Of a stretch of 64,000 nt of DNA, positions 3,152-59,545 are shown in pieces. Location of the stretch: positions 123,863-187,862 of the IMG/VR virus record IMGVR_UViG_3300042090_002485; one strand, written 5' to 3'. The stretch is from a virus. The notes below the pieces were generated by a model. It did not search any database and was not told the DNA's origin. It was given only the letters and a program-made list of their open reading frames with translations. A program made the translations under genes and the position numbers. Numbering within the stretch: position 1 is the stretch's first letter; every line of letters starts with the position of its first letter.

Positions 3152-3459
3152 AGATCAAGGTCTACAACCCCGTCGACGAGGTCGACAAGAAGCGGCCGCT
3201 GCTCGAGCACGACGACTTGAACGAGCTGCTCCGCGTGCGGCTCACGGTCAACGACGAGGTGTTCGAGTTGACCGGGGGCGGGGGCCTGCTGGCGCTGCGC
3301 TCGATCAGCGGCAAGCAGCTGGTCGTGCGCCCGCGCGCGTCGAACATGATCGAGTTCGATGTCGTGCCGTGGCAGACCGAGTCGTCGCTGCCGGAGTACG
3401 GCAGCCGGAAGCGCACGCCGAGCCGCGCGCCGCGCGCGAAACGACGCAGCCGTGACTAG
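3148..3459 (+). CDS. hypothetical protein
   Basis: ATGA overlap, 103 aa. Confidence 0.65.
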   Translation: MKIKVYNPVDEVDKKRPLLEHDDLNELLRVRLTVNDEVFELTGGGGLLALRSISGKQLVVRPRASNMIEFDVVPWQTESSLPEYGSRKRTPSRAPRAKRRSRD

Positions 3460-3904
3460 GTTCCGGCGGCAAACGCGCGACAGCATCATCCCCGGCAACT
3501 TCCTGCCGCCCTACACCATCGACCGCATCATCATGCGCGTTACCGGCGTTGGCCACGGCGCGGCGCGCATCGAGGGCGCCTGTGCCATCACGACGTGCTG
3601 CGGCGGGTGCTTCAACCTGCCCAACCCGGCCAACGTCCTGGCAGGCATCGCGACGTGCGTGCTGTGCGTGAACTGCCGGGGCTGCCCGGCGTGTCGCGAG
3701 GGCTGGGTGCGTGAGGAGACGATGCGGCTCGGCAAGTGGGTGACCAAGGACGGGCGCATGCTCTACCCATTCGAGATGGACAGCGTCCACCTGACCAACT
3801 CGATCAGGAAGCTCAAGCGCGACAAGACGCACTTCAAGCAGGCCTGGGAGACGTGGGTCGAGATCCTCGAAGCCGAGGCCAAACAACGTGCCCTGGATTG
3901 GTAA
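3452..3904 (+). CDS. TCxxC-family module fused to a C-terminal domain
   Basis: GVGH...CCGGC...ATCVLC then about 80 further aa. Confidence 0.6.
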   Translation: MTRFRRQTRDSIIPGNFLPPYTIDRIIMRVTGVGHGAARIEGACAITTCCGGCFNLPNPANVLAGIATCVLCVNCRGCPACREGWVREETMRLGKWVTKDGRMLYPFEMDSVHLTNSIRKLKRDKTHFKQAWETWVEILEAEAKQRALDW

Positions 3905-3912
3905 AAGAACAG

Positions 3913-4326
3913 GTGAAGACATCATCCAAACTCAAGCCGCTCGAGCCTGTTGACCACGCGCGCTGCCAAGCCGACATCAAGTCAGCGTACAACCCCTTCA
4001 TCTTCGGCGGAGACGTCGGTGGGAAGTGGGGCCGCTGCAAGAACAAGCCGATCTGGTACGCCCGTGAGGTCGAGGTCGACGCTAATGGGCGCCGAGGCGC
4101 GATGTCACTCTGCGACGAGTGCAAGGTCGAGTGCGAGAAACGCGTGAAGCGGGCCATATCGTTCGAGCCGCTCGTCGACTGGAACGACAAGTTCCACCAG
4201 CTCTACGAGAACCCGAATTGCGTGCCGCGCGAGGAGGTCGCGCGAGTGCTGCAGGACGCTGGCGCCAACGCGGAGACGGCCGCGGCGTTCGAGCAGCTCA
4301 TCTTGGGCCACTGGCCGCGCCGGTGA
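3913..4326 (+). CDS. hypothetical protein
   Basis: 137 aa, GTG start, coupled to next gene. Confidence 0.65.
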   Translation: MKTSSKLKPLEPVDHARCQADIKSAYNPFIFGGDVGGKWGRCKNKPIWYAREVEVDANGRRGAMSLCDECKVECEKRVKRAISFEPLVDWNDKFHQLYENPNCVPREEVARVLQDAGANAETAAAFEQLILGHWPRR

Positions 4327-4514
4327 CGCTGTCGTACTACGCGAAGGGGCCTCTCGTCCATGTCATGTATCGCGGCAACCAGGACCTGGTCTACCACTGG
4401 CCGCCCCATCACGAATACCGGTCCCTATGGATGGCGTCCCGTATCGAGGACCAGCCGATCACCTGCGTCGAATGCCTGGCATTTGTTTGCGCACCGCCCA
4501 CGTTGGTGCGATAA
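4323..4514 (+). CDS. TCxxC-family small Zn-finger-like protein
   Basis: GPLVH...ITCVECL; GTGA overlap. Confidence 0.7.
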   Translation: MTLSYYAKGPLVHVMYRGNQDLVYHWPPHHEYRSLWMASRIEDQPITCVECLAFVCAPPTLVR

Positions 4515-4523
4515 ACATGGCCC

Positions 4524-4910
4524 ATGCACATCAACGAGTACCAGGTCCTCGCCGCCGTCACCGAGTTCACCCCCGACTTCGTCCGCCTAGGGCAGGGCCC
4601 CGAGCACGACATGATGGTCGCGCGCCTCCTGCACTCGACCTTGGGCATGATGACTGAGGTCGGCGAGTTCGCCGACATGCTGAAGCGGCACATCTTCTAC
4701 GGCAAGGCCCTCGACGAGGTCAACCTGCTGGAGGAAAACGGCGATCTGGCTTGGTACCAAGCACTGGCCCTGAACGCGACGAAAAAGAACCTCGAGGAGT
4801 GCCTCGAGAAGAACATCGCCAAGCTCAAGGCCCGGTTCGGCGACAAGTTCACGCAGCACGCGGCGCTCAACCGCGACCTGGCCAAGGAGCGGGCTGAACT
4901 GGAGAAGTGA
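4524..4910 (+). CDS. mazG: MazG-like nucleotide pyrophosphohydrolase
   Basis: LGMMTEVGEFADMLKRHIFYG...EENGDLAWY...NIAKLKARF: typical phage MazG ExxE/ExxD signature. Confidence 0.9.
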   Translation: MHINEYQVLAAVTEFTPDFVRLGQGPEHDMMVARLLHSTLGMMTEVGEFADMLKRHIFYGKALDEVNLLEENGDLAWYQALALNATKKNLEECLEKNIAKLKARFGDKFTQHAALNRDLAKERAELEK

Positions 4911-4911
4911 C

Positions 4912-5612: not shown

Positions 5613-6475
5613 CCATGTTCGGATTGTTCGGCTTCGGGATGTCCCCGGAGATGGAGAAGCGCCAGCGCGAGCGTGAACGCGCCGAACGCGCTGAGCGTAT
5701 GAAGGAGGCTGTGGCCTGGGACCCCAAGGTGAACTGGACGCCCCGGCTGACGATCAAGGCCGAGACGTGGCCGTCGTGGGACCTGTTCTCGCCGCCCCCG
5801 TCAACTTGCCACGACGTCAACGACGAGACCGACGAATCCAAGCTCGTGTTCTCCCCATGCGGTCGGTTCGTGTTCTACCGCAAGACCCTCAAGAAGGGAG
5901 GCAAGCTGCTTACGCTGTCCGGGTCGCGTGAAGGCAACGTGATGTTCGACGGCGACGTGTACATCCCGGCGCTGCACGAGAAGACCCGCAACGGTGAGCG
6001 CTGGCACGAGCACCCATGGATGAGCGTCACGCCGATGGAGCTGATGACACAGCGTCCAGGTGTACGCTTCGCTAAGGGCCACACCATCGTCGGCGGTCTC
6101 GGCATGGGGTGGGCACTCGTCCAGATCTTGCTCAAGAAGACGGTGACGCGGGTGACGCTCGTGGAGCGGTCGCAAGCGCTCGTCGACTGGTTGCTACCGC
6201 GCGTGAAGCAGCTGCACCTTTCGGCGTTCGACAAGCAGCTCGACATCGTCGTCGGCGATGCCTACGAAGTCATCCCGGCAATGACCGCCGATGTCGCGGT
6301 GATCGACATCTTCGACGGCTACGGCGGCAATGACTTCCTCGAGGGCGTCATGAACCGGATGCGCAACGCGCTGCCGTCAGGGCAGCGCTGGAAGACGGAG
6401 CTTGGACCGCCGTGTCCGAACATCGGACGCGTATGGTCGTGGGGGAAAGCAGAGGTCAGCGACGGCGGCTGGTGA
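5609..6475 (+). CDS. class I SAM-dependent methyltransferase (spermidine-synthase-like fold)
   Basis: TIVGGLGMG motif I, VTLVE motif II, VVGDA, VIDIF. Confidence 0.8.
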   Translation: MTMFGLFGFGMSPEMEKRQRERERAERAERMKEAVAWDPKVNWTPRLTIKAETWPSWDLFSPPPSTCHDVNDETDESKLVFSPCGRFVFYRKTLKKGGKLLTLSGSREGNVMFDGDVYIPALHEKTRNGERWHEHPWMSVTPMELMTQRPGVRFAKGHTIVGGLGMGWALVQILLKKTVTRVTLVERSQALVDWLLPRVKQLHLSAFDKQLDIVVGDAYEVIPAMTADVAVIDIFDGYGGNDFLEGVMNRMRNALPSGQRWKTELGPPCPNIGRVWSWGKAEVSDGGW

Positions 6476-6699
6476 TGCTGTTCGCTGTCGTCCGCTGGAA
6501 CAACGTCGTCCACGCTGCCATCGGCCTCAACGGTACGTGGGTTGAGGGCCGCGCGGTCGCTCACTGCGGTCAGAAGATGAAGCTGTACCGCGGCAGCAAG
6601 AACAAGGTAACGAAGCAACCCGTGACGTGCGTGCTGTGCGTCGCGAAGGAGATCGCCTGTGAACAAACGGAACCGAACCAGCAACAAGGCCCTGCGTGA
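6475..6699 (+). CDS. TCxxC-family small Zn-finger-like protein
   Basis: NNVVH...HCG...VTCVLCVA; TGATG overlap. Confidence 0.8.
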   Translation: MLFAVVRWNNVVHAAIGLNGTWVEGRAVAHCGQKMKLYRGSKNKVTKQPVTCVLCVAKEIACEQTEPNQQQGPA

Positions 6700-11298: not shown

Positions 11299-11581
11299 AC
11301 GCAAGAAGCGCGTCTGGCGTGTGCGTGTCGATGTCACCCGTGAGGTCGAGGTGTTCGCATCTGACGCCGAAACCGCACAGAAATACGCAGCGGCGCTTGG
11401 CATCTACAAACTCAGACGCAAGACCCGCGAAACACGCATCACTGACTCAGTGATGTGGGTCGACAGGATGAGCGTCGGACACGTTGAGGGCTGCCGCGGC
11501 AAGCACTGCAAGCACTTCAACTGCGACACGGAGACCGACGCGCCGTACTACTGCACCACGTGCGATCCGGGGGCTCAGTGA
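11291..11581 (+). CDS. hypothetical protein
   Basis: C-terminal Cys/His cluster CRGKHCKHFNC...CTTC. Confidence 0.6.
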   Translation: MTRRKKRVWRVRVDVTREVEVFASDAETAQKYAAALGIYKLRRKTRETRITDSVMWVDRMSVGHVEGCRGKHCKHFNCDTETDAPYYCTTCDPGAQ

Positions 11582-11844
11582 CGCTCGCGGAGGTCCTCCA
11601 GCGCATCAAGACGCTGCCTCGAGTCGGTGACAGCGCGATCGTTCTGGACAAGCACGGCGTCGCGCACGTTCTCGTCGTCACCGAGGTGAAGAACCGGGGT
11701 GCTCGCGCCAACGCGCTCAGTGCAGTGCTCGCCGGCGAGGTAACGTTCATGTGCGGATGCGAGGCGATGACCTACGAGTCGAAGCAGATCGAGCATCTCG
11801 AGATCGCGCCCATCATCACGTGCGTGGTGTGCAGGGCGCTGTGA
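11578..11844 (+). CDS. TCxxC-family small Zn-finger-like protein
   Basis: DKHGVAH...CGC...ITCVVC. Confidence 0.8.
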   Translation: MTLAEVLQRIKTLPRVGDSAIVLDKHGVAHVLVVTEVKNRGARANALSAVLAGEVTFMCGCEAMTYESKQIEHLEIAPIITCVVCRAL

Positions 11845-12029
11845 ACAAGCCGAACATCGCCGATGGACATGGTGTCGTGCACCACAACGATGGCACGGAC
11901 CACTTCGGGTGCGGCGCGTGCTGTACACGCATACCGACGACGCGAGCGACCGCCGTTCGCACCACTCGCGAACCTGTCACATGCGTCAAGTGCCTCGCGT
12001 GGGCATTCGACCGAAAGTTGGAATCATGA
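11841..12029 (+). CDS. TCxxC-family small Zn-finger-like protein
   Basis: DGHGVVH...CGAC...VTCVKCLA. Confidence 0.8.
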   Translation: MNKPNIADGHGVVHHNDGTDHFGCGACCTRIPTTRATAVRTTREPVTCVKCLAWAFDRKLES

Positions 12030-12466
12030 CCGAGTTGAAACGAGACCCTGTCAAGCTGGCCCAGATCTCCAAGGAACTGGACCGGCTCTCAGCGATGGTC
12101 GACCGCGTGACCAAGAACGACATCACCAACGCGGCCATGGTCATCCTCGACTGCGCCAACGACATTCAAGACATGTTGCGCGGCAAGCTGCGCGGCTGCA
12201 AGTGCCAGCAGATCGACCGCGACGATGGTGGCAGCTACCTCATCTACAACAACGACTGCGTTCACCATGGCTTCCTCGCACGCGAACGTGAGCGCGTCGA
12301 GAACTGGTTCAAGGACGAGCAGGCCAGGCTCGAGGACTCCCGGCTGTGGAAACTCGTCGAAGCGGCGATGGCTAGGCCAGATCTGGACGCACAGCAGGTG
12401 TGGAATTTTGCAAAGGCGGTTCTCGCCAATGCGCCCGCGGCGCCTGAAAAACGATCCAAGCCATGA
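12026..12466 (+). CDS. hypothetical protein
   Basis: 146 aa, ATGA overlap. Confidence 0.7.
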   Translation: MTELKRDPVKLAQISKELDRLSAMVDRVTKNDITNAAMVILDCANDIQDMLRGKLRGCKCQQIDRDDGGSYLIYNNDCVHHGFLARERERVENWFKDEQARLEDSRLWKLVEAAMARPDLDAQQVWNFAKAVLANAPAAPEKRSKP

Positions 12467-12619
12467 GTTCTGTGAGCTGGAGTTCGGCGTGCATCCGCAA
12501 GCCAGCGGCGCGGTAAAGCGCCGCCATGCAGCAGGCGGTTCTTGGCGTCAAGTCCAGGTACGCTGCATCCATGACGGTGCGCGCAGTGCGAACGCCGAGC
12601 CAGCAGTCGAAAGTGAGGT

Positions 12620-12874
12620 TTGATGGGTTTACACGATAAACACAGAGCGCAGGTGCCACGTCGCGCAGGCGCGCTCGTCGACCCATCGGGCGTTGTCCAT
12701 GACCGAATCCACGTCGATTCCGCCAGCACGCCAGAATTTCACGTCACGCGATGCGAAGACAGCGGACGAGGATTCATCGAAGCCGAGTGGTCAAACGAGG
12801 ACCTTCGCCCCGCACCACGCTGGACCGCGACGACGTGTGTAGCGTGCTTGGCCGCGAGGAGGCGCGATGCCTAG
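12620..12874 (+). CDS. TCxxC-family small Zn-finger-like protein
   Basis: DPSGVVH...RC...TTCVACLA. Confidence 0.8.
   Translation: MMGLHDKHRAQVPRRAGALVDPSGVVHDRIHVDSASTPEFHVTRCEDSGRGFIEAEWSNEDLRPAPRWTATTCVACLAARRRDA
12627..12641. promoter_or_regulatory. palindromic motif GTTTA-N5-TAAAC, copy 1
   Basis: GTTTACACGATAAAC; second copy at 13803-13817. Confidence 0.35.
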
Positions 12875-13058
12875 AGAAAAGGCGTGCAATTTTACAGGGC
12901 CTGACGTCTTGATTCACGCAGCGTGGCCTTACAACGGCACGAACACAACGCTCTGCGAGTACATGAACTCCGACTACCGGTTCTCTTCAGAGAGCCTGCG
13001 TGCAACCAGCACCCCGGTCAACTGCGTGCGGTGCATCGCGGCGGAAGTTGATGTCTAG
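12867..13058 (+). CDS. TCxxC-family small Zn-finger-like protein
   Basis: PDVLIH...LC...VNCVRCIA. Confidence 0.8.
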   Translation: MPREKACNFTGPDVLIHAAWPYNGTNTTLCEYMNSDYRFSSESLRATSTPVNCVRCIAAEVDV

Positions 13059-13260
13059 GCGTTACCGTCATCGCGACGGCATCGTTCACCTCGCAGCCGA
13101 CCTCGGCACCAAAACACACATCACGGTGTGCGAACGCGTCTACGACAAGGATGTCTTCATCAGCGAGGACCTGGCCGAAGTCGACGCGATTGTGACGTGC
13201 GCGCGGTGCCTCGGTGCGCCGCAACACATGCACGTCTTGCACGGGCACGGGCCAGCATGA
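13051..13260 (+). CDS. TCxxC-family small Zn-finger-like protein
   Basis: RDGIVH...VC...VTCARCL. Confidence 0.8.
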   Translation: MSRRYRHRDGIVHLAADLGTKTHITVCERVYDKDVFISEDLAEVDAIVTCARCLGAPQHMHVLHGHGPA

Positions 13261-13469
13261 AGTGGCGCTTCTGGCGCGGGTCCAATGGCGTCACGCACGA
13301 AACCTTCGGCATAGCCGGCCGCCGATCTATGACGCTGTGTGAGAACGTCGAGATGCGGATGTTGTACGACGCCGACACGCTCAAGCGTGGCAAGAAGCCC
13401 GTGACGTGCGTGATCTGCGTCGCTGAGGGCATCCGACGAAAGGCAAGGCGCGCCCATGAGCTGGCGTGA
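13257..13469 (+). CDS. TCxxC-family small Zn-finger-like protein
   Basis: SNGVTH...LC...VTCVICVA. Confidence 0.8.
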   Translation: MKWRFWRGSNGVTHETFGIAGRRSMTLCENVEMRMLYDADTLKRGKKPVTCVICVAEGIRRKARRAHELA

Positions 13470-13662
13470 CCCGACGGGCGTCGCCCACGAGACGGGCGGA
13501 AGCCACGGGGCCGCTTCGCTGATGCTATGCGAAGCGTCGAACGTCGCAACGATGTGGCCTTCAAACGCCCTGAAGGAACACGAGGGACCTACGACGTGCG
13601 TACGGTGTCTCGCGGAGCTGGCGCGGCTGCAGTCGCAGCATCCACGCTACGGTCGCCCCTGA
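13456..13662 (+). CDS. TCxxC-family small Zn-finger-like protein
   Basis: WRDPTGVAH...LC...TTCVRCLA. Confidence 0.8.
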   Translation: MSWRDPTGVAHETGGSHGAASLMLCEASNVATMWPSNALKEHEGPTTCVRCLAELARLQSQHPRYGRP

Positions 13663-13802
13663 GCACCAACGCGCCGATCAGCTCCACAAACCACTGCCCT
13701 GCGTCGCTGTTGCGCTTTGCCGCGAGCGACAGCCCGACCATCAGCGCCAGCGCCCGAGGGCACTGGTCGCGGGAGAACATGGAGTACTCGCGGCGGCACA
13801 TG

Positions 13803-13817
13803 GTTTACCTGATAAAC
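13803..13817. promoter_or_regulatory. palindromic motif GTTTA-N5-TAAAC, copy 2
   Basis: GTTTACCTGATAAAC upstream of 13840. Confidence 0.35.
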
Positions 13818-13839
13818 GGCGCACGGAGGTTACGCGATT

Positions 13840-14064
13840 ATGCTGCATGAGATGGGGCACCGCGTCAACGACAAAGAGGTGGTCGCGCACTGTTCGCTCG
13901 ACGACCTGGCGCACCGGTTCACCCAAATTGTCGAGGTCTCAATATGGCGTTCCTGGTGCGGGGCTCACACCGTGTTGGCCTGGGGATACCTGCCGTTTAC
14001 CCGCCTCGACGAGCCGGCGACAGCGACGTGTGTGCGGTGTCAGGCACGCGGCGGACCGCCGTGA
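13840..14064 (+). CDS. TCxxC-family small Zn-finger-like protein
   Basis: DDLAH...WCG...ATCVRC. Confidence 0.75.
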   Translation: MLHEMGHRVNDKEVVAHCSLDDLAHRFTQIVEVSIWRSWCGAHTVLAWGYLPFTRLDEPATATCVRCQARGGPP

Positions 14065-14270
14065 ACGTCGTCTTCAACTACCTCATCCACGAGGTGTCCC
14101 GGACCGAAACGCATTCTCGGTTCGGTCTGACGTTCTGCGGTTACGCATTCACGCTCGAGTTCTCAACCGGACGCACGTTCCTGCATGTGTTCAGCGCTGA
14201 CGTGACACGCGCCCCGGTCAACTGCGCTGCCTGCATCGGTCTTGCTGACGAAAGGGACCCCACCACATGA
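14061..14270 (+). CDS. TCxxC-family small Zn-finger-like protein
   Basis: YLIH...FCG...VNCAACI. Confidence 0.75.
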   Translation: MNVVFNYLIHEVSRTETHSRFGLTFCGYAFTLEFSTGRTFLHVFSADVTRAPVNCAACIGLADERDPTT

Positions 14271-14815: not shown

Positions 14816-14859
14816 GAGAACTTCCATGGCCAACAAATCGCTTTCAGGAGAGGCCCGAC

Positions 14860-46053: not shown

Positions 46054-46066
46054 TACCAACCAGACC

Positions 46067-47852: not shown

Positions 47853-48138
47853 CAAGCCGCACACGCTCGGCTTGGTCATGGATCCGGACGGCGTCGTGCA
47901 CGGCTACGTCTACGTCCCGTTCGACCCGACCAAGCACTTCCAGTTCACCAACTGGCAGATTCAGGGCATCGTGCAGGAGGGGGACGTCATCAAGATCGAG
48001 GCGTCCGCGGACAAGCTCGAGCTGTTGCCGGTCTACGTCACGTTTTGCGGCGCTCCGTTCGACGACCTCGGCTGGGTGGACGTCGCCGACAAGCTAGTCA
48101 CGTGCGTGGGCTGCTGGGCGATGGTGTGCACGCCGTGA
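47839..48138 (+). CDS. TCxxC-family small Zn-finger-like protein
   Basis: DPDGVVH...FCG...VTCVGCWA. Confidence 0.8.
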   Translation: MARIDKPHTLGLVMDPDGVVHGYVYVPFDPTKHFQFTNWQIQGIVQEGDVIKIEASADKLELLPVYVTFCGAPFDDLGWVDVADKLVTCVGCWAMVCTP

Positions 48139-48451
48139 GCGGCGGGCCTCCGGCGTGGTTGTGCGCGTGCGATCCTTATGACCCGGAAGACTCGCACGTC
48201 GTGCACCTGTTCGGTTTGTCTGCGCTTTCCGACAGCATAGGCAAGCGCTTCTACGTATCGTGCTGTTCGCTCGGTTTCATCCAGCAGGCAGTTCATGCCA
48301 AGTACTGGACGTTGTTCATCCAGCAGGTAGTTCATGCCAAGTACTGGATGTTGGACGAAGCAACCAACTGGCGATCAACCAAGACGCTCCGACGTGCGCC
48401 CTGTGCGTCGCCTACTCGCCGTCCGATTTGGTATACGGACATGGACGATAG
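48135..48451 (+). pseudogene. frameshifted TCxxC-family gene
   Basis: DSHVVH..SCC in one frame, PTCALCVA in another; internal 2x39-bp duplication 48276-48353. Confidence 0.65.
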
Positions 48452-48459
48452 AGGTGCCT

Positions 48460-48714
48460 ATGATCACTGTTAGACCGACCATCATCAGCGACCACGCCAT
48501 CGAGCGCGCGATGACCCGTCACATGGGCGTCCCGTCGCTGCACGTCGGGCCGATCGTCGAACGCTACGCCGCGAAGGTGCGCCGCAAGCTCGAGGCCCTG
48601 CTCCTCAGCGCCGAGCACGTTGGGCCTGACGGCCACTGGCAGATCTGGCGCACGCAGACGGGGCATCTGCTGACCGTTGACGTTGATGGCGTGGTGCGGA
48701 CGATCTTGCCGTGA
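48460..48714 (+). CDS. small hypothetical protein (HAIER motif)
   Basis: GAGG SD; ISDHAIERA...LTVDVDGVVRTILP. Confidence 0.65.
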   Translation: MITVRPTIISDHAIERAMTRHMGVPSLHVGPIVERYAAKVRRKLEALLLSAEHVGPDGHWQIWRTQTGHLLTVDVDGVVRTILP

Positions 48715-48968
48715 GCGAGCACGAGCTGCCGCCGTATCTGGTCGACAATGTGCTTGGTCCTGATGGCATCGTGCACAGCACCTACGCGCACGGCGCGTTC
48801 GGTGACAAGCTCGGCATCGACATCTATGTCGTGTGCACGGCGCGCAAGCCGCATGGATTGCCTGTGGTCGAGGGGCCGGCGACGTGTGTCATGTGCTTCG
48901 CTGACTGGCCGAAGACGCAGCGCTGGGTGCGTTATGCGATCATCAACTCTCGTGGCACAGACCCGTGA
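48711..48968 (+). CDS. TCxxC-family small Zn-finger-like protein
   Basis: GPDGIVH...VC...ATCVMCFA. Confidence 0.8.
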   Translation: MSEHELPPYLVDNVLGPDGIVHSTYAHGAFGDKLGIDIYVVCTARKPHGLPVVEGPATCVMCFADWPKTQRWVRYAIINSRGTDP

Positions 48969-49211
48969 GAGGCATTCGCCTCATCGTCATGGTCCACGAG
49001 GTCGTGCTGTCGTACTCTGCCCCCCCATTACACCAAGGTTTCGGCTCAGCCGCGCTACGTCGTCAGGACGCGGTGCGGGCGTAGCTACAGCTTTTCGATG
49101 GCCATGTATCACGAGAAGCACATCAATAACGATGCTGTCATCACGTGCGTGCGTTGTCTCGCTGGTGTCGACGCCGAGGGTCGTGCGCTGCCGATGGCGT
49201 TTGAGGGCTAG
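48965..49211 (+). pseudogene. TCxxC-family gene frameshifted at a C7 run
   Basis: VMVH... then C7 (49020-49026); removing one C gives ...RCG...ITCVRCLA to TAG 49211. Confidence 0.75.
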
Positions 49212-53874: not shown

Positions 53875-54129
53875 ATGCGCACATACAAGGACGACCGCGA
53901 CATCATTCACTGGGTTTGGCAGGTCGACATGACCGACGTTTGGCAGGTCGACATGATCGACGCGGTGTTATCCAAGCCGGTGCGCCGGTGGGCGCTGGCC
54001 TGCACCCGAGACGGTTCGCGTGTCCTGACGCTCGCGACCGACACTCACAACATCGACAAGCGCCACCACCGCACGGTCACGTGCGTGCTGTGCTTGGCGC
54101 TTCCACGGTCTCAACACCCGCTCGGATGA
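53875..54129 (+). CDS. TCxxC-family small Zn-finger-like protein
   Basis: DDRDIIH...AC...VTCVLCLA; internal 2x24-bp duplication 53914-53961. Confidence 0.8.
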   Translation: MRTYKDDRDIIHWVWQVDMTDVWQVDMIDAVLSKPVRRWALACTRDGSRVLTLATDTHNIDKRHHRTVTCVLCLALPRSQHPLG

Positions 54130-54317
54130 CTATGGCCTACCTCGTGCGCTGCCCTAGCTGTCGCTGTCCCAAGCGCGTCGACGCTGGCGAGGTCGATCCG
54201 CGCGTCGGCTGCCCGCGAACGGCGTGTCCGAGGTGCGGCGCGCCGTACGTGACCTTGCCGCCGTTGCCGGGCGCGCTGCCGCGCCTGGGCGAGGCCCACG
54301 AAGATTGGGGGTACTGA
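54126..54317 (+). CDS. small Zn-finger protein
   Basis: CPSC...CPRCG. Confidence 0.6.
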   Translation: MTMAYLVRCPSCRCPKRVDAGEVDPRVGCPRTACPRCGAPYVTLPPLPGALPRLGEAHEDWGY

Positions 54318-54577
54318 TGAGAGACCCGCTTGCTGCCGAGGCCTGGCGCGAAGAAACCCTCGACGACGTCTGCTTCGTGTTCGAGGACCTGCGCGCGCAC
54401 CGCGTGACGCGGTTCACGCGTTACAGCGGCCCATGGATGTTCTTGCAGACGCCGTGTGGTTACGCATCGCAGACGTACGACAACATCACGGGCCTTGCCA
54501 AATCATTCGCGCTGCGCCCAGGCATCGTCACGTGTGTCGAGTGTCTCGCGATGGAGGTGCATGATGTTCAAGACTGA
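54317..54577 (+). CDS. TCxxC-family small Zn-finger-like protein
   Basis: DLRAH...PCG...VTCVECLA. Confidence 0.8.
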   Translation: MRDPLAAEAWREETLDDVCFVFEDLRAHRVTRFTRYSGPWMFLQTPCGYASQTYDNITGLAKSFALRPGIVTCVECLAMEVHDVQD

Positions 54578-54857
54578 CCCACGCGACTTCGGTCCCGGCT
54601 ACACGCACTACACGTTCAACAGCCCTAAGGTCGAACGCATACAAGACAGCGCTGGCGTTGTGCACCACGTTCACGCATACACAGCTAACACGTATCCGTG
54701 GGCATCCGAGACCTACTGCATCCAGCTCTGGGGCGACCTCGAGCCCGTGTTCATCCGCGACCCGGACGCGCGGGTGACGTGCGTCGAGTGCATCGCCGCG
54801 GCCGTGGCCTTGGATGCGATGTGGACGCTGAATGTCAAATGGAAGGTGTCGTTTTGA
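54564..54857 (+). CDS. TCxxC-family small Zn-finger-like protein
   Basis: DSAGVVH...YC...VTCVECIA. Confidence 0.8.
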   Translation: MFKTDPRDFGPGYTHYTFNSPKVERIQDSAGVVHHVHAYTANTYPWASETYCIQLWGDLEPVFIRDPDARVTCVECIAAAVALDAMWTLNVKWKVSF

Positions 54858-55087
54858 CGGCGGTCACCGTGAGCGGTTGGGTTTCGCGGGGCGAGGTGCA
54901 GTTCAAGAACGTGCCGGGCATAACGCACGCCAGTTACGTTGATGGGTTCGCGGGTGACGCGATTCGTGATCGCGAGCGCTTCGTCCCGTGCGCGAACGGC
55001 TGGTATGCGGCACGTTGGTGGAAGGACGCGTCCGCGCCGGTGACATGCGTGTGGTGCCTGGCGTGGCAGGTCGCTATTGGGTGTTGA
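54854..55087 (+). CDS. TCxxC-family small Zn-finger-like protein
   Basis: PGITH...PC...VTCVWCLA; TTGA overlap. Confidence 0.75.
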   Translation: MTAVTVSGWVSRGEVQFKNVPGITHASYVDGFAGDAIRDRERFVPCANGWYAARWWKDASAPVTCVWCLAWQVAIGC

Positions 55088-55279
55088 TCGACGTCTACGC
55101 CGTGCAGCGCTGGGAATACAGCATGACGGCGAAGGCGCTCTCTTTGGTGGATGACCTCACCCATCGCGCGCTCGAGACCGTTTTTCGTGCGGACGCGAGG
55201 CGGACGACGATGCGTTTGTTGAAGACGACTATTGACCGCCCACTTGACTCCGGGAGGACGTGCATGGCACACCTTGCAC

Positions 55280-55576
55280 ATGGCGAAGAAGAGGAAGAAC
55301 GGGCACACCGCGAAGTCGACCAACGGGACGCGTCGCTCCCCCTACCCGTACGACGCGTTCGTGAAGAACTGGACCAAGGCCGAATCGGTCAAGGAGGTCG
55401 CGACGATGACGGGCCTCTCCAAGAGCAACATCGCTGCGACGGTGAACAAGCTCCGCAAGGCCGGCGTCAAGCTCAAGGAGATGCCGAAGAGCTACGCGCG
55501 TCTGATCGACGTCACGTCGTTGAACAAGCTGATCAAGGAGTCGACGACGAAGCCGGCGCCCAAGGCGCAGTCCTAG
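55280..55576 (+). CDS. basic HTH DNA-binding protein
   Basis: SVKEVATMTGLSKSNIAATVNKLRKAGVKL; strongly adapted codons. Confidence 0.75.
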   Translation: MAKKRKNGHTAKSTNGTRRSPYPYDAFVKNWTKAESVKEVATMTGLSKSNIAATVNKLRKAGVKLKEMPKSYARLIDVTSLNKLIKESTTKPAPKAQS

Positions 55577-55746
55577 ACCAAGACCTCGTTCGCGACGAGT
55601 ACGGCGTCGTTCACGTCGAGGACGGGTTCTGGCGCGTGTTGATGTGCGACATCAACTGCCCGACCGGTGAGATGGCGATCTTGCCGTCGTCGAAGATTCC
55701 GACGTGTGTTGCTTGCATCGGAGGCCGTTATGTCCGCTACCGGTGA
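55577..55746 (+). pseudogene. TCxxC-family module lacking a nearby start codon
   Basis: RDEYGVVH...MC...PTCVACI, no in-frame ATG/GTG close upstream. Confidence 0.55.
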
Positions 55747-56248
55747 GCCCAAGCTGCGCGCGTTCATCGTCACCGCGGCCGACGAACCACCCGAAGAAGG
55801 CGCTGCGCTGGTCTACGCGCTGTCGCCACAGGAGGCACGCCGGCTCGGTTGTCATGAGGTCGGCATCGGCGGCGTCGCCTACATCGACTCGCGTGCGCGA
55901 CGCGCCAAGGAGCACGACGCGCGTGCGGCGCTGGCCAAGGAGGCGTGCGTCGAGCACGACGCCGAGTACCTGCGCAAGGCCGGCTGGGGCAACGAAGACG
56001 AGTTGCGCTGCGGCTCGTGTGGGCTGTGCGCGATGGGCCTCGAGAAGTACGCCGTGTGCCGGATGTCGGGGCAGTGCAAGGAGTGCGGCTGCGACTTCGA
56101 GCGCAAGTGCGGCGCTACGGGCGTCGATGCTGAGGGCCACTGCAAGCGCTGTGGGCTGACGCTCGAGCCCGACACCGAGTGCCCGCTTGGCTTCCTCACA
56201 GACGTCGACCCGAAGTGCGAGCACGACGACGGGTTCAGTTGTGAGTGA
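55730..56248 (+). CDS. Cys-rich hypothetical protein
   Basis: CGSC, CKEC, CKRC motifs. Confidence 0.7.
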   Translation: MSATGEPKLRAFIVTAADEPPEEGAALVYALSPQEARRLGCHEVGIGGVAYIDSRARRAKEHDARAALAKEACVEHDAEYLRKAGWGNEDELRCGSCGLCAMGLEKYAVCRMSGQCKECGCDFERKCGATGVDAEGHCKRCGLTLEPDTECPLGFLTDVDPKCEHDDGFSCE

Positions 56249-56474
56249 CGGGCGCGGGTACCGGCGCGCGCTCAATGACCTCGCGATCTCGCGCGAGCTA
56301 CGCGCGTTCGTCGTCGACGATGCTTGTGTCGTGCACGGTGTCGTGATGGACGGACACTGGTCGCTCAAGGCGTGTACGCGCGAGGCGATCGCGCTCAACG
56401 AGCGCATGATGGGCCTGCCACGCAACCTGACCATCACCTGCGTGGCGTGTCGTGCTTGGTTGGACGGACCGTGA
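56241..56474 (+). CDS. TCxxC-family small Zn-finger-like protein
   Basis: DDACVVH...AC...ITCVAC. Confidence 0.8.
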   Translation: MSDGRGYRRALNDLAISRELRAFVVDDACVVHGVVMDGHWSLKACTREAIALNERMMGLPRNLTITCVACRAWLDGP

Positions 56475-56710
56475 CGAAGCCGCGGTTCTTCCCGGCACCG
56501 AGAGGCCGCATTCCACTGCTCACCGGGCGTGTCGTTGACCCTGTTGGGGTCGTTCACGCGAGTGTGGGAGCGGACGTCGCGTACACCTGGGTTAAGAGCA
56601 TCATCAGATGCACGGGCCAGCCTGCGGTGCTGGCGGGGTTCTACGTCGAGCGCATCCGTGCGGTGACGTGCGTGAGGTGCTTGGCGCTCGACGCCGGAGG
56701 TTCAACGTGA
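56471..56710 (+). CDS. TCxxC-family small Zn-finger-like protein
   Basis: DPVGVVH...RC...VTCVRCLA. Confidence 0.8.
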   Translation: MTKPRFFPAPRGRIPLLTGRVVDPVGVVHASVGADVAYTWVKSIIRCTGQPAVLAGFYVERIRAVTCVRCLALDAGGST

Positions 56711-57012
56711 AGCAACGTACGACGGTTCCATGGCAACAGAAGCGCGTCTCGTCGCAGCTCATGACCTTGCTCGACGCAACTGCCGAAGAACTGCGAAAGC
56801 TACTGCCTCCGACCAGTGGCACCGTACGTGACCGGCACGGCGTCGTTCACCAGGTCATCGGCGACATGACCTGCTGCGACCTCGAGTGGTGCCGGGTCAC
56901 ACGGAGTGGCCTGCCGCAAACTCGCACGGGCTGGTCTGCGACGGGCCCCGAGGCCATCCGGCCCGTGACCTGCGCGGCGTGTCTTGCCGACTTCGCGTCG
57001 CGAGGAGATTAG
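56707..57012 (+). CDS. TCxxC-family small Zn-finger-like protein
   Basis: DRHGVVH...TCC...VTCAACLA. Confidence 0.8.
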   Translation: MKQRTTVPWQQKRVSSQLMTLLDATAEELRKLLPPTSGTVRDRHGVVHQVIGDMTCCDLEWCRVTRSGLPQTRTGWSATGPEAIRPVTCAACLADFASRGD

Positions 57013-57016
57013 GAGC

Positions 57017-57286
57017 GTGGGATGGACCGCCACACAATTCACCGACAGCTTTCGCCGGATCGCCGCCCAGACGCCGCGTGGCTTCGTCTGGCGCGACGAA
57101 CACGAGGTCACGCACGCGCTCGTGTCGTGGAACACCAAGTCCGAGCACAGTCGCTGGGTGTTGCTCTGCACGTTCGACTACTTAGCGGTTACGCGCCGCT
57201 ATTTGCCCGCGCACGCGAGCATGCGCGGCTCCGTAGTTACGTGTGCGGCGTGCCTTGGCTCTCCGTACTCCCCGATGGTCCTATGA
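57017..57286 (+). CDS. TCxxC-family small Zn-finger-like protein
   Basis: WRDEHEVTH...LC...VTCAACL. Confidence 0.8.
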   Translation: MGWTATQFTDSFRRIAAQTPRGFVWRDEHEVTHALVSWNTKSEHSRWVLLCTFDYLAVTRRYLPAHASMRGSVVTCAACLGSPYSPMVL

Positions 57287-57684
57287 AGACCACAACCACC
57301 AACAACTTGCTGGCCGAGATGCGGCGGCTCGGCGTTCCGACCACGCAGCCGCCGCGTGACGCGCGCTGGGTGTTCTGGGCGCGGCGTGACCAGCTCGCGC
57401 ACCGCGTGCTCGCGGTGGCGGGTACCCAGTGGCTCACCCGACAAGGTCGCCAGGTCCCGCACTTCGCCGTGACCGAGTGCGGGCGCTACGCCGTGCTGGC
57501 GGAATCGGCGCTCGGCGGGGCCTACCTGGCCGACGACGCGTTGGTAACGTGCGCGCCGTGCGCGTCCGGGCTGTGCCGAAACGGCTTGCTTGTGCGTGTG
57601 GAAGACAAGCAACTGCTGTTCGGCACGTTGTACGGTAAGCCCCCTCTATACGGAACGCTGTTCCCTAGAAAGAAGGTCCCATGA
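57283..57684 (+). CDS. TCxxC-family protein with extensions
   Basis: RDQLAH...ECG...VTCAPCA. Confidence 0.75.
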   Translation: MKTTTTNNLLAEMRRLGVPTTQPPRDARWVFWARRDQLAHRVLAVAGTQWLTRQGRQVPHFAVTECGRYAVLAESALGGAYLADDALVTCAPCASGLCRNGLLVRVEDKQLLFGTLYGKPPLYGTLFPRKKVP

Positions 57685-57977
57685 CGTTCCAGATCCTGAA
57701 CACTGAGCACAAGAAGAAGACCGACGTTCCGGACGGCGTGTTCTCGCGGGTCGACCGCAAGACCGCCACGATGGGTATCAAGCAGTACCACTGGTTCACC
57801 AAAACTGGTGATGGCGTCATCCATCGCATTTGCTGCTCGAGCCATGGAGGCGTGCAGGCGATGATCCTGTTGTGCGACGAGCTGGCGTTCATCGACGGCA
57901 AGCAGGTGTCGCAGTCGGAGGTCGGCAAGGGACCGGTCGTGACCTGCGCGACTTGCGTAGGCACTAACGCGCCGTGA
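57681..57977 (+). CDS. TCxxC-family small Zn-finger-like protein
   Basis: GDGVIH...LC...VTCATCV. Confidence 0.8.
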   Translation: MTFQILNTEHKKKTDVPDGVFSRVDRKTATMGIKQYHWFTKTGDGVIHRICCSSHGGVQAMILLCDELAFIDGKQVSQSEVGKGPVVTCATCVGTNAP

Positions 57978-58537
57978 TCTGGTCGCTGTGGACGCTCGTT
58001 TTTGCTGCTGCGGTTGCTGTCGGTTGGGCCACGGCAGCGCTCATCAGTCACATCAACGAGGTTCGCGCGTCCCTGCGCAGGGATAATGCCGTCCGCGCGA
58101 CGCGTCAGTTCGAGTTGTGCGTTGAACGGTTGGACAGTCTTCGCCTGTACCATCAGCAGCGTTTGCCAGGCGGACCGAGTGCATGGCCTGCTCAACGTCC
58201 CGAAGAGAACGTATGGGACTACTACCGAACGCTGGCGCTTTTGTTTTTCCCAGATGTGGCCCTGCCCCTCTGGGCTCACTTCGAGTACACGCGAACGGTG
58301 GTCAAGAAGGAGAAGCGCATGGTGCAGCTCACGGTTCGGACGGTGCACTGGTACGCCCAGGTTGGCCATATCATGCACCGGGTCGGTAGGCTCAAACACG
58401 GCGACACCGAATCCCACGTCTTGTTGTGCGCGCCGGTGGTGTCCGTCTTGAGACAGCTTGTGGTCGAGGCTGAGGACTACATGCCAGGCCAACCGATCGT
58501 GACCTGCGTGTTGTGCCGAGTGAGCCCAGCGCCATGA
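57974..58537 (+). CDS. membrane-anchored TCxxC-family fusion protein
   Basis: N-terminal TM helix; GHIMH...LC...VTCVLC. Confidence 0.75.
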   Translation: MIWSLWTLVFAAAVAVGWATAALISHINEVRASLRRDNAVRATRQFELCVERLDSLRLYHQQRLPGGPSAWPAQRPEENVWDYYRTLALLFFPDVALPLWAHFEYTRTVVKKEKRMVQLTVRTVHWYAQVGHIMHRVGRLKHGDTESHVLLCAPVVSVLRQLVVEAEDYMPGQPIVTCVLCRVSPAP

Positions 58538-58779
58538 GGGAGCCATCCGGGATCCTGACCGTGCTGCCTTGCGAGACCCGGTGGCGAGACCCGTTCGGCG
58601 TGCGCCACGGTTTCTTCAAGTGCGTCGATCACCAAGTCGACGGCCCATCGGTGGCTTGGTACGAGACCTGGTGCGGCTACGATTTCAACGGCGGCGACCT
58701 GAATTCGCGCACCACATCACACGCCGCAGTTACTTGCGCGCGCTGCCTCGCTGTCGGCGAACCGCGAGACGTTTCGTGA
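58534..58779 (+). CDS. TCxxC-family small Zn-finger-like protein
   Basis: WRDPFGVRH...WCG...VTCARCLA. Confidence 0.8.
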   Translation: MREPSGILTVLPCETRWRDPFGVRHGFFKCVDHQVDGPSVAWYETWCGYDFNGGDLNSRTTSHAAVTCARCLAVGEPRDVS

Positions 58780-58791
58780 TAGGAAAGTGCT

Positions 58792-58962
58792 GTGAAGCCG
58801 TGGCCTACCGACCTGGTACAGATCAAGGTGCGACGCCTACCGCTGCTCAAGCGACGCCACCGCAAGCTCCAACGGCAGCAGGATGCGACGGTGTTCTTGG
58901 GCGACGACACGGCTGGCATTGCCGGCGAGGCGCTGGACGAGATCGGGTCACTGTTCGACTGA
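58792..58962 (+). CDS. small hypothetical protein
   Basis: 56 aa VKPWPTDLVQIKVRR..., AGGA upstream. Confidence 0.4.
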   Translation: MKPWPTDLVQIKVRRLPLLKRRHRKLQRQQDATVFLGDDTAGIAGEALDEIGSLFD

Positions 58963-58983
58963 CCGCTCGTCCGCTGTTGTGGG

Positions 58984-59214
58984 GTGAGGTTGGCGCCCCG
59001 TAACGAGGACCCGCAGTGGGTCGACGCGCACGGCGTCATCCACTATGTCGGTACGCACGTTCCGAACGGCGAAGGCCGAACTATCTATACGGAGTGCTAC
59101 GAAGTGATTTCCCACACCAAGGAGATGGTTGGCTTCTACGACGGCAACATCTGCGGCATCACGTCGTGCGTCCTGTGCATGGCCACGACGAAGTTCGGGA
59201 CGCATGCCCCCTGA
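58984..59214 (+). CDS. TCxxC-family small Zn-finger-like protein
   Basis: WVDAHGVIH...EC...TSCVLCMA. Confidence 0.8.
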   Translation: MRLAPRNEDPQWVDAHGVIHYVGTHVPNGEGRTIYTECYEVISHTKEMVGFYDGNICGITSCVLCMATTKFGTHAP

Positions 59215-59545
59215 CGAGCCGGTCGAGGAGTGGACGCCACGTTGGCGCGACGCGCACGGCGTCGTGCATGTCATGGGCTCGCACATGTCCATGATGGCGT
59301 TTACTGAATGCGGTGTGCGAGTCGCGCAACGCTCGCGACTGGACTTGGCCTGGACAGACCTCTACGAGGCCATCCGCGACGCGCCGACCTGCGCGCAGTG
59401 CATCCATGAAGAGGCGATGCTCCACTCGCTTCGAGGGTTTGCGTTACACGTTGAGCCCGGTATTGCCATCGTCAACACGAAGGCGCTCGCGAAGCTCGAG
59501 TTTACCAATCCGTGCGGTGAGATCTGGCTCGACGACAAGCCTTAG
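59204..59545 (+). CDS. TCxxC-family protein with C-terminal extension
   Basis: WRDAHGVVH...ECG...PTCAQCI. Confidence 0.8.
   Translation: MPPDEPVEEWTPRWRDAHGVVHVMGSHMSMMAFTECGVRVAQRSRLDLAWTDLYEAIRDAPTCAQCIHEEAMLHSLRGFALHVEPGIAIVNTKALAKLEFTNPCGEIWLDDKP

Follow-up and report, generated by a model that had tools for sequence, protein, structure and literature searches.

Why would a bacteriophage keep about 80 strongly diverged copies of the same mini-protein? This question is raised by the stretch of DNA analysed here (the window), which comprises 64,000 nucleotides, positions 123,863 to 187,862, of the 187,862-bp (188 kb) genome of an uncultured phage. This is a complete viral genome with terminal repeats, which bears out the phage origin assumed in an earlier note on this DNA. 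That note described about 75–80 paralogous His/Cys3 proteins in the window and speculated that they form a repertoire of binders.

We built a family HMM of 60 positions from 58 cores and searched 3,219 stop-to-stop ORFs of at least 30 aa from all six frames. The HMM matches 81 ORFs, all of them on the + strand; no − strand ORF of the whole 187,862-bp genome is matched. The window holds 76 of the 81 (E<1e-3 for 70 of the 76), in line with the number noted earlier, and the remaining five lie upstream, at about 86.3–86.8 kb and 117.6–118.2 kb of the genome. The motif TCxxC occurs 79 times in the + strand frames of the window versus 11 times in the − strand frames. The genome background is 0–4 occurrences per 10 kb per strand, versus 9–15 per 10 kb in the last 60 kb, on the + strand only. 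About 80 copies is an extraordinary number for a phage, and we found no GenBank phage that carries the family at all. Hence, the claim that the expansion goes beyond usual phage paralogy stands.

Members are short, with a median length of 77 aa. A length of 55–100 aa had been proposed, and 71 of the 81 do not exceed 100 aa, but the full range is 58–207 aa; a few members have N-terminal extensions or two tandem domains. Apart from four singletons (starting at 3452, 4323, 6475 and 17054), the members in the window fall into the four dense runs already noted, with 12, 23, 22 and 15 genes (Table 1). The overlap of neighbouring genes is indeed the rule, affecting about 87% of the junctions within runs. 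Among all 80 successive junctions there are overlaps of 4 nt (29 cases), 1 nt (3) and other lengths (16), and gaps of 0–20 nt (5), 21–100 nt (2) and more than 100 nt (25).

Some members deserve comment. The marginal ORF at 3452 has a Cys-rich N-terminal part and a C-terminal extension. In run 1, member 14636-14815 is the second domain of a two-domain ORF (14267-14815). The single member at 17054 lies directly upstream of a conserved 693-aa gene and is 49% identical to a foreign relative, P0124. Run 2 is split by a 460-bp element with inverted repeats at its bounds (25473-25932). The first ORF of run 3 (41581-42144) is HMM-negative, yet has S-C-x-x-C at its end, and no start codon could be assigned for the last member of this run, 48969-49211.

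Table 1. Family members in the window and the adjoining phosphoesterase gene (window coordinates).
Feature	Position	Strand	Details
Possible member, marginal	3452..3904	+	150 aa; HMM E 0.03; TCxxC and upstream His; weak
Single member, marginal	4323..4514	+	63 aa; HMM E 0.03, via C-terminal motif ITCVECLA
Single member	6475..6699	+	74 aa; HMM E 3e-12
Run 1	11578..15825	+	12 family genes (HMM)
Run 1 members a	11578-11844, 11841-12029, 12623-12874, 12867-13058, 13051-13260, 13257-13469	+	
Run 1 members b	13456-13662, 13840-14064, 14061-14270, 14636-14815, 15377-15610, 15607-15825	+	
Single member	17054..17293	+	79 aa; HMM E 1.5e-5
Run 2	21856..28982	+	23 family genes (HMM)
Run 2 members a	21856-22053, 22057-22482, 22457-22657, 22635-22844, 23269-23577, 23574-23810, 23807-24163, 24160-24735	+	
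Run 2 members b	24669-24902, 24899-25078, 25075-25266, 25263-25472, 25941-26117, 26114-26302, 26707-26940, 26937-27125	+	
Run 2 members c	27109-27315, 27302-27520, 27513-27725, 27725-27949, 27946-28152, 28142-28324, 28800-28982	+	
Run 3	41581..49211	+	22 family genes (HMM)
Run 3 members a	42144-42725, 42722-43003, 43000-43239, 43239-43487, 43484-43711, 43910-44137, 44134-44358, 44355-44576	+	
Run 3 members b	44576-44827, 44837-45079, 45076-45333, 45330-45593, 45590-45823, 45820-46053, 46067-46312, 47169-47381	+	
Run 3 members c	47378-47632, 47625-47852, 47839-48138, 48260-48451, 48711-48968, 48969-49211	+	
Run 4	53875..59545	+	15 family genes (HMM)
Run 4 members a	53875-54129, 54317-54577, 54564-54857, 54854-55087, 55123-55746, 56241-56474, 56471-56710, 56707-57012	+	
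Run 4 members b	57017-57286, 57283-57684, 57681-57977, 58319-58537, 58534-58779, 58984-59214, 59204-59545	+	
2H phosphoesterase (LigT / 2'-5' RNA ligase superfamily)	60800..61576	+	Pfam; context, not a member

The family ORFs are real genes. Their GC content at the three codon positions is 0.62/0.49/0.77, the third position being the highest in 70 of 81 genes. Independent source pipelines also call them: between 41581 and 59545, the family makes up 27 of 51 called + strand genes, which agrees with the earlier estimate of roughly half of the accessory genes, and these calls miss a further 10 HMM-positive members. The ENA, Logan and JGI assemblies agree at 99.99–100% identity, and run 3 is identical in sequence between independent assemblies. 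A dN/dS under 1 and confident structure models (both given below) support coding as well.

What the members have in common is very little. One His and three Cys are conserved to 100% in the genome's family alignment, and the same four residues are found without exception in 65 members from this genome and 95 foreign ones. Across six contigs of deeply diverged phages, 199 of 210 domains keep all four ligands; in nine of the 11 exceptions a ligand column is gapped, mostly because the alignment is truncated at the N-terminus, and just two are real substitutions. A handful of neighbours are also conserved (D7 0.90, the T in front of the first Cys 0.90, the V that follows it 0.79, A 0.75, G 0.66). 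The W position at the motif start holds a hydrophobic residue in 96% of the members, but W itself in just about 35%. Nearly all remaining columns are close to maximally variable (3.3–4.1 bits of entropy), so that constant anchors in a highly variable sequence are an accurate description. Any two members are at most 43% identical (median 24%), the pI ranges from 4.5 to 10.7 and the net charge from −7 to +8. Part of this apparent hypervariability is simply age, since the whole accessory arm is divergent between sister phages (30–68% identity for non-family genes).

Despite this divergence, the predicted fold is shared. Two AF2 models, built from alignments that do not overlap (pLDDT 86.4 for 13456-13659 and 75.8 for the second), agree in their layout: beta-strands come first, and then a C-terminal helix, which begins at the CxxC. 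This speaks for the shared fold that the earlier note had proposed to check with AlphaFold. The median ligand spacing is His-17-Cys-21-CxxC. Structural zinc sites typically combine a CxxC at a helix start with a His and a Cys further away, and the site here probably binds zinc, judging from motif and models. A 3Cys-1His set may also hold iron-sulfur clusters, and one could argue for a role in redox sensing or chemistry. The ligands are compatible with this, and one of 65 members weakly matches Fer4_13 (E 0.0075). We nevertheless consider it very unlikely: there is no consistent ferredoxin or Wbl-like family match, the ligand arrangement is the usual one for structural zinc, and a redox cofactor protein would hardly be expected to expand 80-fold with variable surfaces. 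Even less credible, to the point of being nearly negligible, is that these are precursor peptides of a ribosomal natural product, in which a conserved part serves recognition and the core is hypervariable. Such precursors could look like many short, hypervariable, Cys-containing ORFs in arrays, and one member weakly matches SapB/AmfS (E 0.038), but the complete genome holds no LanC-like or radical-SAM enzyme, the conserved residues sit at both ends and in the middle instead of in a leader, and the AF2 models are confidently globular.

Could the family already be known under another name? The family of mini-proteins with an invariant His and three Cys is previously uncatalogued: no family in Pfam, PHROG, NCBIfam or PADLOC matches its members, so the earlier note was right to suspect that it is undescribed, with respect to the curated libraries searched. 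Models of known defence and anti-defence families match none of the members, no fused functional domain was found in members, and comparison with solved folds returned no structure at Z 5 or above. The earlier note was reminded of zf-HC3 and of DUF3039, which comprises small proteins of high-GC bacteria that conserve Cys and His. As membership, this likeness fails: among 160 family sequences there is no match to either Pfam model and no significant match to any Pfam DUF model. For zf-HC3 (PF16827) no sequence matches even at E<=1, and the genome's top score, 7.5 bits, falls short of the cut-off of 25. We therefore rejected membership in zf-HC3, and the likeness is at the level of shape only. 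There, Atlas neighbours at TM 0.62–0.68 include a cluster of 78-aa proteins in which 23% of the members carry zf-HC3, and the language-model features of a second member lead to this cluster too (0.81). It is conceivable, though improbable, that the proteins are divergent zf-HC3-type zinc fingers that regulate the phage's own programme like DNA-binding transcription factors and do not target the host. Eighty regulators with unalignable surfaces, in copy numbers from 0 to 81 and with gain and loss between strains, are a poor fit to core regulators, and the charge spread takes in many non-basic members.

The second candidate is PylSn, the tRNA-binding N-terminal zinc domain of pyrrolysyl-tRNA synthetase (PylRS), which returns as a weak match by three different methods. 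The only PDB sequence matches of profile A1 are two structures of this domain, 5ud5_A and 5v6x_A (E 0.28 and 0.37), in an alignment that pairs the W, G, H, central C and TCxxC; the ligand spacing in PylRS is H-18-C-27-CxxC against family medians of 17 and 21. Foldseek places 5ud5_A third for model 1 and gives it the highest TM among the matches listed for model 2 (0.35). Another member has a 'pyrrolysine-tRNA ligase small subunit' cluster among its language-model neighbours (score 0.90, 178/256 features). The PylRS domain is compact, holds one zinc and docks on tRNA (PMC11467909), which favours a reading of the family as remote relatives that bind tRNA or other RNA and shield, sequester or mark host or phage RNAs. 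We think this unlikely, if worth keeping in mind, and the resemblance is not significant. The hhalign probabilities are just 15.8%, 8.7% and 2.2%, a foreign-only profile (A3) does not recover the domain from the PDB, a structural aligner gives Z 2.4 and an rmsd of 4.4, and none of 65 members matches the NCBIfam PylS models. A family of uniform RNA binders would not be expected to include so many acidic or neutral members.

As to distribution and evolution, the family is limited to a single clade of uncultured phages with high GC content. In cells, the closest homologs of a neighbouring gene come from Pseudomonadota, at just 40–44% identity. Copy numbers across related phages are 81, at least 56, at least 36, 3 and 0, the last in a phage estimated to be 98% complete. 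On a tree, members of different phages are intermixed. Hence, the repertoire is old and shared and not the product of a recent burst. Between strains that are about 97% identical (95.6–99%), whole gene cassettes differ: one strain has a 1.9-kb insertion with four extra members, and the other has two members that are wholly absent from the first and two more of which the first has only fragments. The breakpoints fall at ATGA gene junctions, and one member has a Cys-to-Arg change at a ligand. Syntenic orthologs (run 4 versus contig L119) are 33–56% identical, compared with 55–71% for neighbouring genes. With 38 nonsynonymous and 19 synonymous changes, the family has a dN/dS of 0.63, compared with 0.31 for the neighbours (21 and 22), a difference based on small counts (Fisher p 0.10). 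Selection on the family is purifying but relaxed; with such counts and both values below 1, positive selection is not established. The repertoire is thus 'diversified', as proposed earlier, insofar as it is hypervariable and diverges faster than its neighbours, but we found no diversity-generating machinery (reverse transcriptase, template repeats) and no recent duplicates.

One could also argue that the arrays are largely selfish or nearly neutral cassettes, which spread by recombination at conserved ends and bring the phage little benefit. The only DNA-level repeats among members, motif-encoding stretches of 27–31 nt, could seed such recombination, and the junction breakpoints, the raised dN/dS, the lost ligand and the related phage without any members all point the same way. 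We doubt this explanation strongly, for the following reasons. First, the family is not making new copies of itself: there are no recent duplicates, the highest identity being 43%. Second, its dN/dS is still below 1. Third, the four ligands persist in nearly all copies from deeply diverged phages. Fourth, syntenic orthologs persist as well.

Faster divergence together with gain and loss of cassettes fits an evolutionary pattern of the arms-race type. We favour, at about an even chance of being right, the explanation that these predicted metal-site, single-domain proteins of about 8 kDa are a birth-and-death repertoire of small binders for host takeover or counter-defence. A single tetrahedral metal site, most likely with Zn2+, would pin the fold, its ligands being the His of an N-terminal beta-hairpin, the Cys some 17 residues after it and, about 21 further, a CxxC at the start of the C-terminal helix. 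Constraint acts only on the four ligands and a handful of nearby residues, leaving the remaining surface free to vary. Some 80 versions are kept in co-directional arrays of the accessory arm, with overlapping start and stop codons. Birth and death shape the repertoire: cassettes are gained and lost between near-identical strains, a member occasionally loses a ligand, and retained orthologs outpace neighbouring genes in divergence. Each metal-stabilised binder could then recognise a different macromolecule, protein or RNA, of the host or a competitor. We infer the metal and its binding, the targets and the timing of expression, and it is context and evolutionary pattern that suggest a binder, anti-defence or host-takeover role. 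Hence, the observation in the earlier note is confirmed, and its interpretation is partly supported.

How does the family compare with known systems? Like zf-HC3 proteins, its members are small, stand-alone and equipped with one His and three Cys; we know of no viral array of tens of zf-HC3 paralogs. With PylSn (PDB 5UD5) they share the order His, Cys, CxxC at similar spacing, a W-x-x-x-G-x-x-H start and, as predicted, a compact domain with one metal, but PylSn is a single-copy translation factor, whereas the phage family is a hypervariable multigene family. In overall behaviour, the family resembles the MGF360/505 families of ASFV and the ankyrin and kelch families of poxviruses: these have tens of paralogs in variable genome arms, evolve by birth and death, differ in copy number between relatives and are tied to host range and immune evasion. 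Their folds are unrelated, their proteins are much larger and their hosts are eukaryotic, whereas the unit here would be a metal-pinned mini-domain of about 77 aa. Among phages, the host-takeover module of SPO1, the early small ORFs of T4 and anti-CRISPR loci are likewise dense, tightly packed co-directional arrays of very small accessory genes, and such clusters turn over quickly between relatives. The arrays described here adjoin a LigT/Acb1-like phosphoesterase (2_5_RNA_ligase2 47.9 bits, LigT_PEase 35.6 bits; Acb1 22.9 bits, under the cut-off of 27), which lies directly downstream of them in every related contig (L118, L119 and L120). Known takeover and anti-defence clusters consist mostly of unrelated small proteins, whereas here paralogs of a single family account for more than half of the genes.

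Our results show that the final arm of this phage genome carries a new, clade-restricted and massively expanded family of metal-site mini-proteins, in which purifying selection acts on the scaffold, constraint on the remainder of each protein is relaxed, and members turn over by birth and death. We built a family HMM from 58 cores; among the 3,219 six-frame ORFs of the genome it identifies 81 positives, every one on the + strand. Inside the window lie 76 of them (70 at E<1e-3), and the search recovered all four dense + strand arrays that the earlier note had described by eye, plus four singletons; the other five members lie upstream, at about 86.3-86.8 kb and 117.6-118.2 kb of the genome. The TCxxC motif alone gives the same picture. 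It occurs 79 times in the + strand frames of the window and 11 times in the - strand frames, and its density rises from a genome background of 0-4 per 10 kb and strand to 9-15 in the last 60 kb, on the + strand only. Members have a median length of 77 aa (range 58-207 aa), and the roughly 80 paralogs occupy about 11% of the genome's bases and about 30% of the window, which is far beyond the paralogy usual in phages.

The arrangement of the genes also agrees with what had been proposed. Most neighbours are coupled by overlaps (48 of 55 within-run junctions), 29 of these 48 being of the 4-nt ATGA/GTGA type. The estimate that about half of the + strand accessory genes are members holds as well in the stretch 41581-59545: they account for 27 of 51 independently called + strand genes there, and ten further members were missed by the gene caller. 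The GC content of members by codon position is 0.62/0.49/0.77, as expected of coding sequence in a high-GC genome, with GC3 the highest in 70 of the 81 genes. Some proteins carry the domain twice, in our window (see table) as well as among the homologs found by profile search (P0056, P0114, P0133 and P0141). In one homolog, P0002 (691 aa), the C-terminal motif is matched seven times; this protein may be a fusion or read-through product. Fused and extended members contain no Pfam domain.

Family arrays and other features of the window
Feature	Position in window	Strand	Remarks
Run 1	11578-15825	+	12 members
Tandem two-domain protein	14267-14815		two copies of the domain
693-aa gene	17485-19566		
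Run 2	21856-28982	+	23 members
460-bp element	25473-25932		
841-aa repeat gene	29318-31843	-	
Three tandem paralogous genes	31847-34768	-	
Intergenic gap	41127-41580		454 bp
36-nt inverted repeat in the gap	41246-41281 / 41396-41431		86% complementary
Run 3	41581-49211	+	22 members
About 16 small non-family genes	49216-53812	+	between runs 3 and 4; without Pfam match where tested
Run 4	53875-59545	+	15 members
2H phosphoesterase (LigT-like)	60800-61576		2_5_RNA_ligase2 47.9 bits; Acb1 (anti-CBASS) 22.9 bits, below the cut-off of 27

The genome is one contig of 187,862 bp (65% GC), of which the window forms the final 64 kb, and the virus record has direct terminal repeats and an estimated completeness of 100% (IMG/VR). 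The ENA, Logan and JGI pipelines yielded separate assemblies from several samples that are 99.99-100% identical. Since independent assemblies from several samples agree, the arrays are not an assembly artefact. The conserved 693-aa gene between runs 1 and 2 has a product that is 43-46% identical to proteins of many tailed phages, including Salmonella, Pseudomonas, Xanthomonas, Ruegeria and cyanobacterial phages, and 76-80% identical in five IMG/VR records. A homolog of this protein is labelled DUF8224 by a precomputed Pfam call; our own Pfam scan of the protein was empty. An M20 peptidase has its nearest homologs in Pseudomonadota at 40-44% identity, which is uninformative about the host.

Several other features of the window deserve mention. 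The gap that separates a - strand block from the + strand arrays contains an inverted repeat and might serve as an origin or in regulation; it has no Rfam match. No Rfam elements or tRNAs were found in the window, and sigma-70 promoters and intrinsic terminators are no more frequent than expected by chance. The 841-aa gene consists largely of about 35 tandem 63-nt (21-aa) repeats with 60-78% identity and has a weak, sub-threshold Mce4_CUP1 match. Next to it, three paralogs of about 972 nt each (322-324 aa), Gly-rich and with GC-rich repeats, may encode fibre-like structural proteins; one has a weak Gly_rich_2 match. The 460-bp element, located between two family genes, is single-copy in the genome, has a GC content of 58% and contains a single basic ORF of 131 aa that carries a CDDC...C..H motif. 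A 24-nt inverted repeat (23 of 24 complementary) bounds it, with GAGTAAC next to each copy. It resembles a small insertion with target-site duplication.

What the members have in common is a small set of positions. In an alignment of 65 members from this genome the three Cys are invariant and the His is conserved in at least 90% (100% where the column is aligned); in a separate alignment of 95 foreign members all four residues are invariant. Among 210 domains from six phage contigs, 199 carry the complete set. The 11 exceptions are nine gaps at a ligand position, mostly N-terminal alignment truncations, and two real substitutions, both in a sister phage. Further conserved positions are a D (0.90), a G (0.66-0.73), a T before the first CxxC Cys (0.90-0.92), two hydrophobic residues preceding the His, another after the first CxxC Cys, and L/I-A after the second. 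Entropy in the remaining columns is 3.3-4.1 bits. The spacing varies widely too, with a median of 17 residues from His to central Cys (range 6-49) and of 21 from there to the CxxC (range 15-64). Members range in pI from 4.5 to 10.7 and in net charge from -7 to +8. Median pairwise identity is 24% and the maximum is 43%; therefore there are no recent duplicates. Adjacent members are slightly more similar than others (0.260 vs 0.245, permutation p 4e-4). The metal held by the His/Cys3 site would be zinc, with an iron-sulfur cluster at the same ligands as a live alternative.

The earlier note had proposed structure prediction as a test for a shared Zn core, and a shared fold is indeed predicted: two independent models agree in layout. 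The AlphaFold2 model of member 13456-13659, made from an alignment of members of this genome (pLDDT 86.4, pTM 0.69), has three strands, at residues 2-4, 10-17 (with the His) and 20-23; the central Cys follows, and the CxxC marks the start of a helix at 49-61. The model of a foreign member, made from foreign sequences only, has the same layout (pLDDT 75.8). In both, the CxxC lies at the start of the C-terminal helix; a treble-clef finger takes two ligands from the first turn of a helix and two from a zinc knuckle, which the remaining pair here, at a median separation of 17 residues, would not form. Foldseek searches of PDB and BFVD returned nothing at E <=1e-3. Exhaustive structural alignment against 48,161 chains gave best Z scores of 3.0 and 2.2 for the first and second model, and hence no solved relative at Z >=5. 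The best alignments of the first model cover residues 1-45 and are to SH3-like, KOW and integrase C-terminal barrels, so the modelled N-terminal half appears to resemble small SH3-like barrels.

Pfam, PHROGs, NCBIfam and PADLOC contain no model that matches the family (for PADLOC, zero matches at E <=0.01 with 65 members), and we found no description of such a family in the literature. Two known families had been named as similar. With zf-HC3 (PF16827) the members share a ligand set of one His and three Cys in a small protein. Membership is not tenable: the best six-frame match in the genome reaches 7.5 bits (E 1.1) against a gathering score of 25 bits, and zf-HC3 is absent from Pfam scans at E 0.1 or 1 for all 65 members and the 95 foreign ones. 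An indirect link comes from the nearest Atlas shapes (TM 0.62-0.68), which include a small-protein cluster with zf-HC3 in 23% of its members. On these modelled shapes, the two families might still be distant kin. The suggested likeness to DUF3039 was not borne out, its model being absent from the Pfam results for all 160 sequences.

A different lead concerns the N-terminal zinc domain of pyrrolysyl-tRNA synthetase (PylSn, PDB 5UD5). It is the sole PDB sequence match of the 65-member profile (E 0.28), with the four ligands and the W and G positions aligned. It also appears in the Foldseek lists of both models (E 0.8 and E 8) and ranks third, with a score of 0.90, among the language-model neighbours of another member. 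In hhalign comparisons (15.8%, 8.7% and 2.2%) the ligand columns are superimposed each time, with a shallow PylSn alignment of four sequences. The lead does not reach significance: the hhalign values are 2-16%, the foreign-only profile does not recover PylSn, and structural alignment to 5UD5 gives a Z of 2.4 (rmsd 4.4 over 47 residues). An NCBIfam scan of the 65 members at E <=1 contains no PylS model. We therefore treat PylSn as the closest solved analogue by ligand pattern and not as a demonstrated relative. The literature (PMC11467909) depicts the PylRS domain as compact, with a single zinc, and as contacting the tRNA by docking at its T-loop and variable loop. The resemblance hints at RNA binding by the members, a live alternative to a repertoire of target-specific binders. 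If they do bind tRNA or other RNA, this would suggest a new phage way of handling RNA-directed defences.

Outside this genome the family is confined to related phages. A profile search of 1.84 billion representatives listed 203 proteins at E <=1e-3, none below 1e-10. Among the best 150 of these, 37 belong to the genome itself and 113 are foreign; all 20 foreign matches checked are unnamed or called 'hypothetical protein'. Every foreign match traced to a contig came from a metagenome-type assembly, as do the two NCBI records with the family, which are of the same phage type. A word-indexed homolog search with the 65-member profile returned only the genome's own proteins. Runs of tiny co-directional genes occur in every contig examined. 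Two sister phages, G002 and G005, have at least 56 and at least 36 members in the parts covered. Three further contigs have 18, 14 and 7, and their arrays stop just upstream of the LigT-like 2H phosphoesterase, which lies directly downstream of the arrays in our genome too and is kept in all related contigs. A whole-genome search covered phages whose version of the 693-aa gene is 76-80% identical. Here the number of family matches falls from 47 (184.9 kb, complete) to 30 (158 kb), 3 (156 kb) and zero in both a 126.5-kb phage (estimated 98% complete) and a 46-kb fragment. The family is absent from five more distant phages, from GenBank phages (tblastn with two members) and from cellular genomes (5 + 301 sampled Pseudomonadota and Chloroflexota). 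In IMG/VR, a scan by DNA pattern matched eight contigs, with arrays only in the known sister phage.

Compared with the sister phages the whole arm has diverged, with non-family genes only 30-68% identical. The best cross-genome family matches are mostly at 27-48% (>=40 residues), no better than paralogs within a genome. Against the closer contig L119, identity is 33-56% for collinear family orthologs and 55-71% for the non-family genes beside them. On a tree of 210 domains the phages of origin are intermingled almost at random (101 label changes vs 110.9 ± 3.3 when shuffled), and 44 of 67 sister pairs join different phages. The repertoire is therefore old and shared, as far as a 59-column alignment that resolves poorly can tell.

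Closer strains show how the repertoire changes. A near-identical sibling contig proved unsuitable for dN/dS, being the same phage (99.99-100% identical). Between sister-lineage strains 2-4% apart, dN/dS is 0.63 in the family (38 nonsynonymous, 19 synonymous) and 0.31 in neighbouring non-family genes (21 nonsynonymous, 22 synonymous), a difference that is no more than suggestive (Fisher p 0.10). As neither value reaches 1, selection maintains the genes. Between strains that are 95.6-99% identical, one carries four additional members on a 1.9-kb insertion. Of the members of the other strain, two are missing altogether from the first and two more persist there as fragments only. The breakpoints coincide with ATGA gene junctions. 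That the arrays are selfish cassettes is a live alternative in the light of such gains and losses. Ligands can be lost as well: one member (11894-12073 of sister-lineage contig L110, at about 160.9 kb of G002) reads TRVPC, with Arg for the first CxxC Cys, where L115 (5055-5234) reads TCVPC. It appears to be in decay.

There is no sign of diversity-generating machinery. The complete genome has no RVT_1 match (controls were positive), and members share no long DNA repeats, only a motif-coding stretch of 27-31 nt. With no reverse transcriptase and no template-like repeats, the system is not a diversity-generating retroelement. Nor do members share private 6-mers beyond the anchor motif that would indicate segment exchange.

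What could such a repertoire be for? The variable surfaces would engage different targets, and these may be host defence or takeover factors. We regard the case for a repertoire of binders as evenly balanced. An accessory arm of tiny co-directional genes beside a LigT/Acb1-like phosphoesterase (Acb1 below threshold) fits a binder repertoire and is no proof of it. That members are regulators is a live alternative. A role as RiPP precursor peptides is improbable: the genome has neither a LANC_like nor a Radical_SAM match, the two enzyme classes tested, which argues against it. More tentatively, the arrays may be an inherited library of metal-pinned mini-binders, with each of the roughly 80 directed at a different defence protein or RNA of the host, to neutralise or capture it; cassette gain and loss would reshuffle the library among related phages. 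If this is true, it would provide a natural binder scaffold and a broad counter-defence strategy that are both new.

Target-specific binding would have several consequences. The arrays would be a large and so far unexploited source of counter-defence or host-takeover factors. Their minimal zinc scaffold, able to accept nearly any surface, would be of interest for protein engineering. They would also be a clear case of birth-and-death repertoire evolution in a bacterial virus. The paralog expansion in this phage resembles the multigene families that underlie host range and immune evasion in large eukaryotic viruses.
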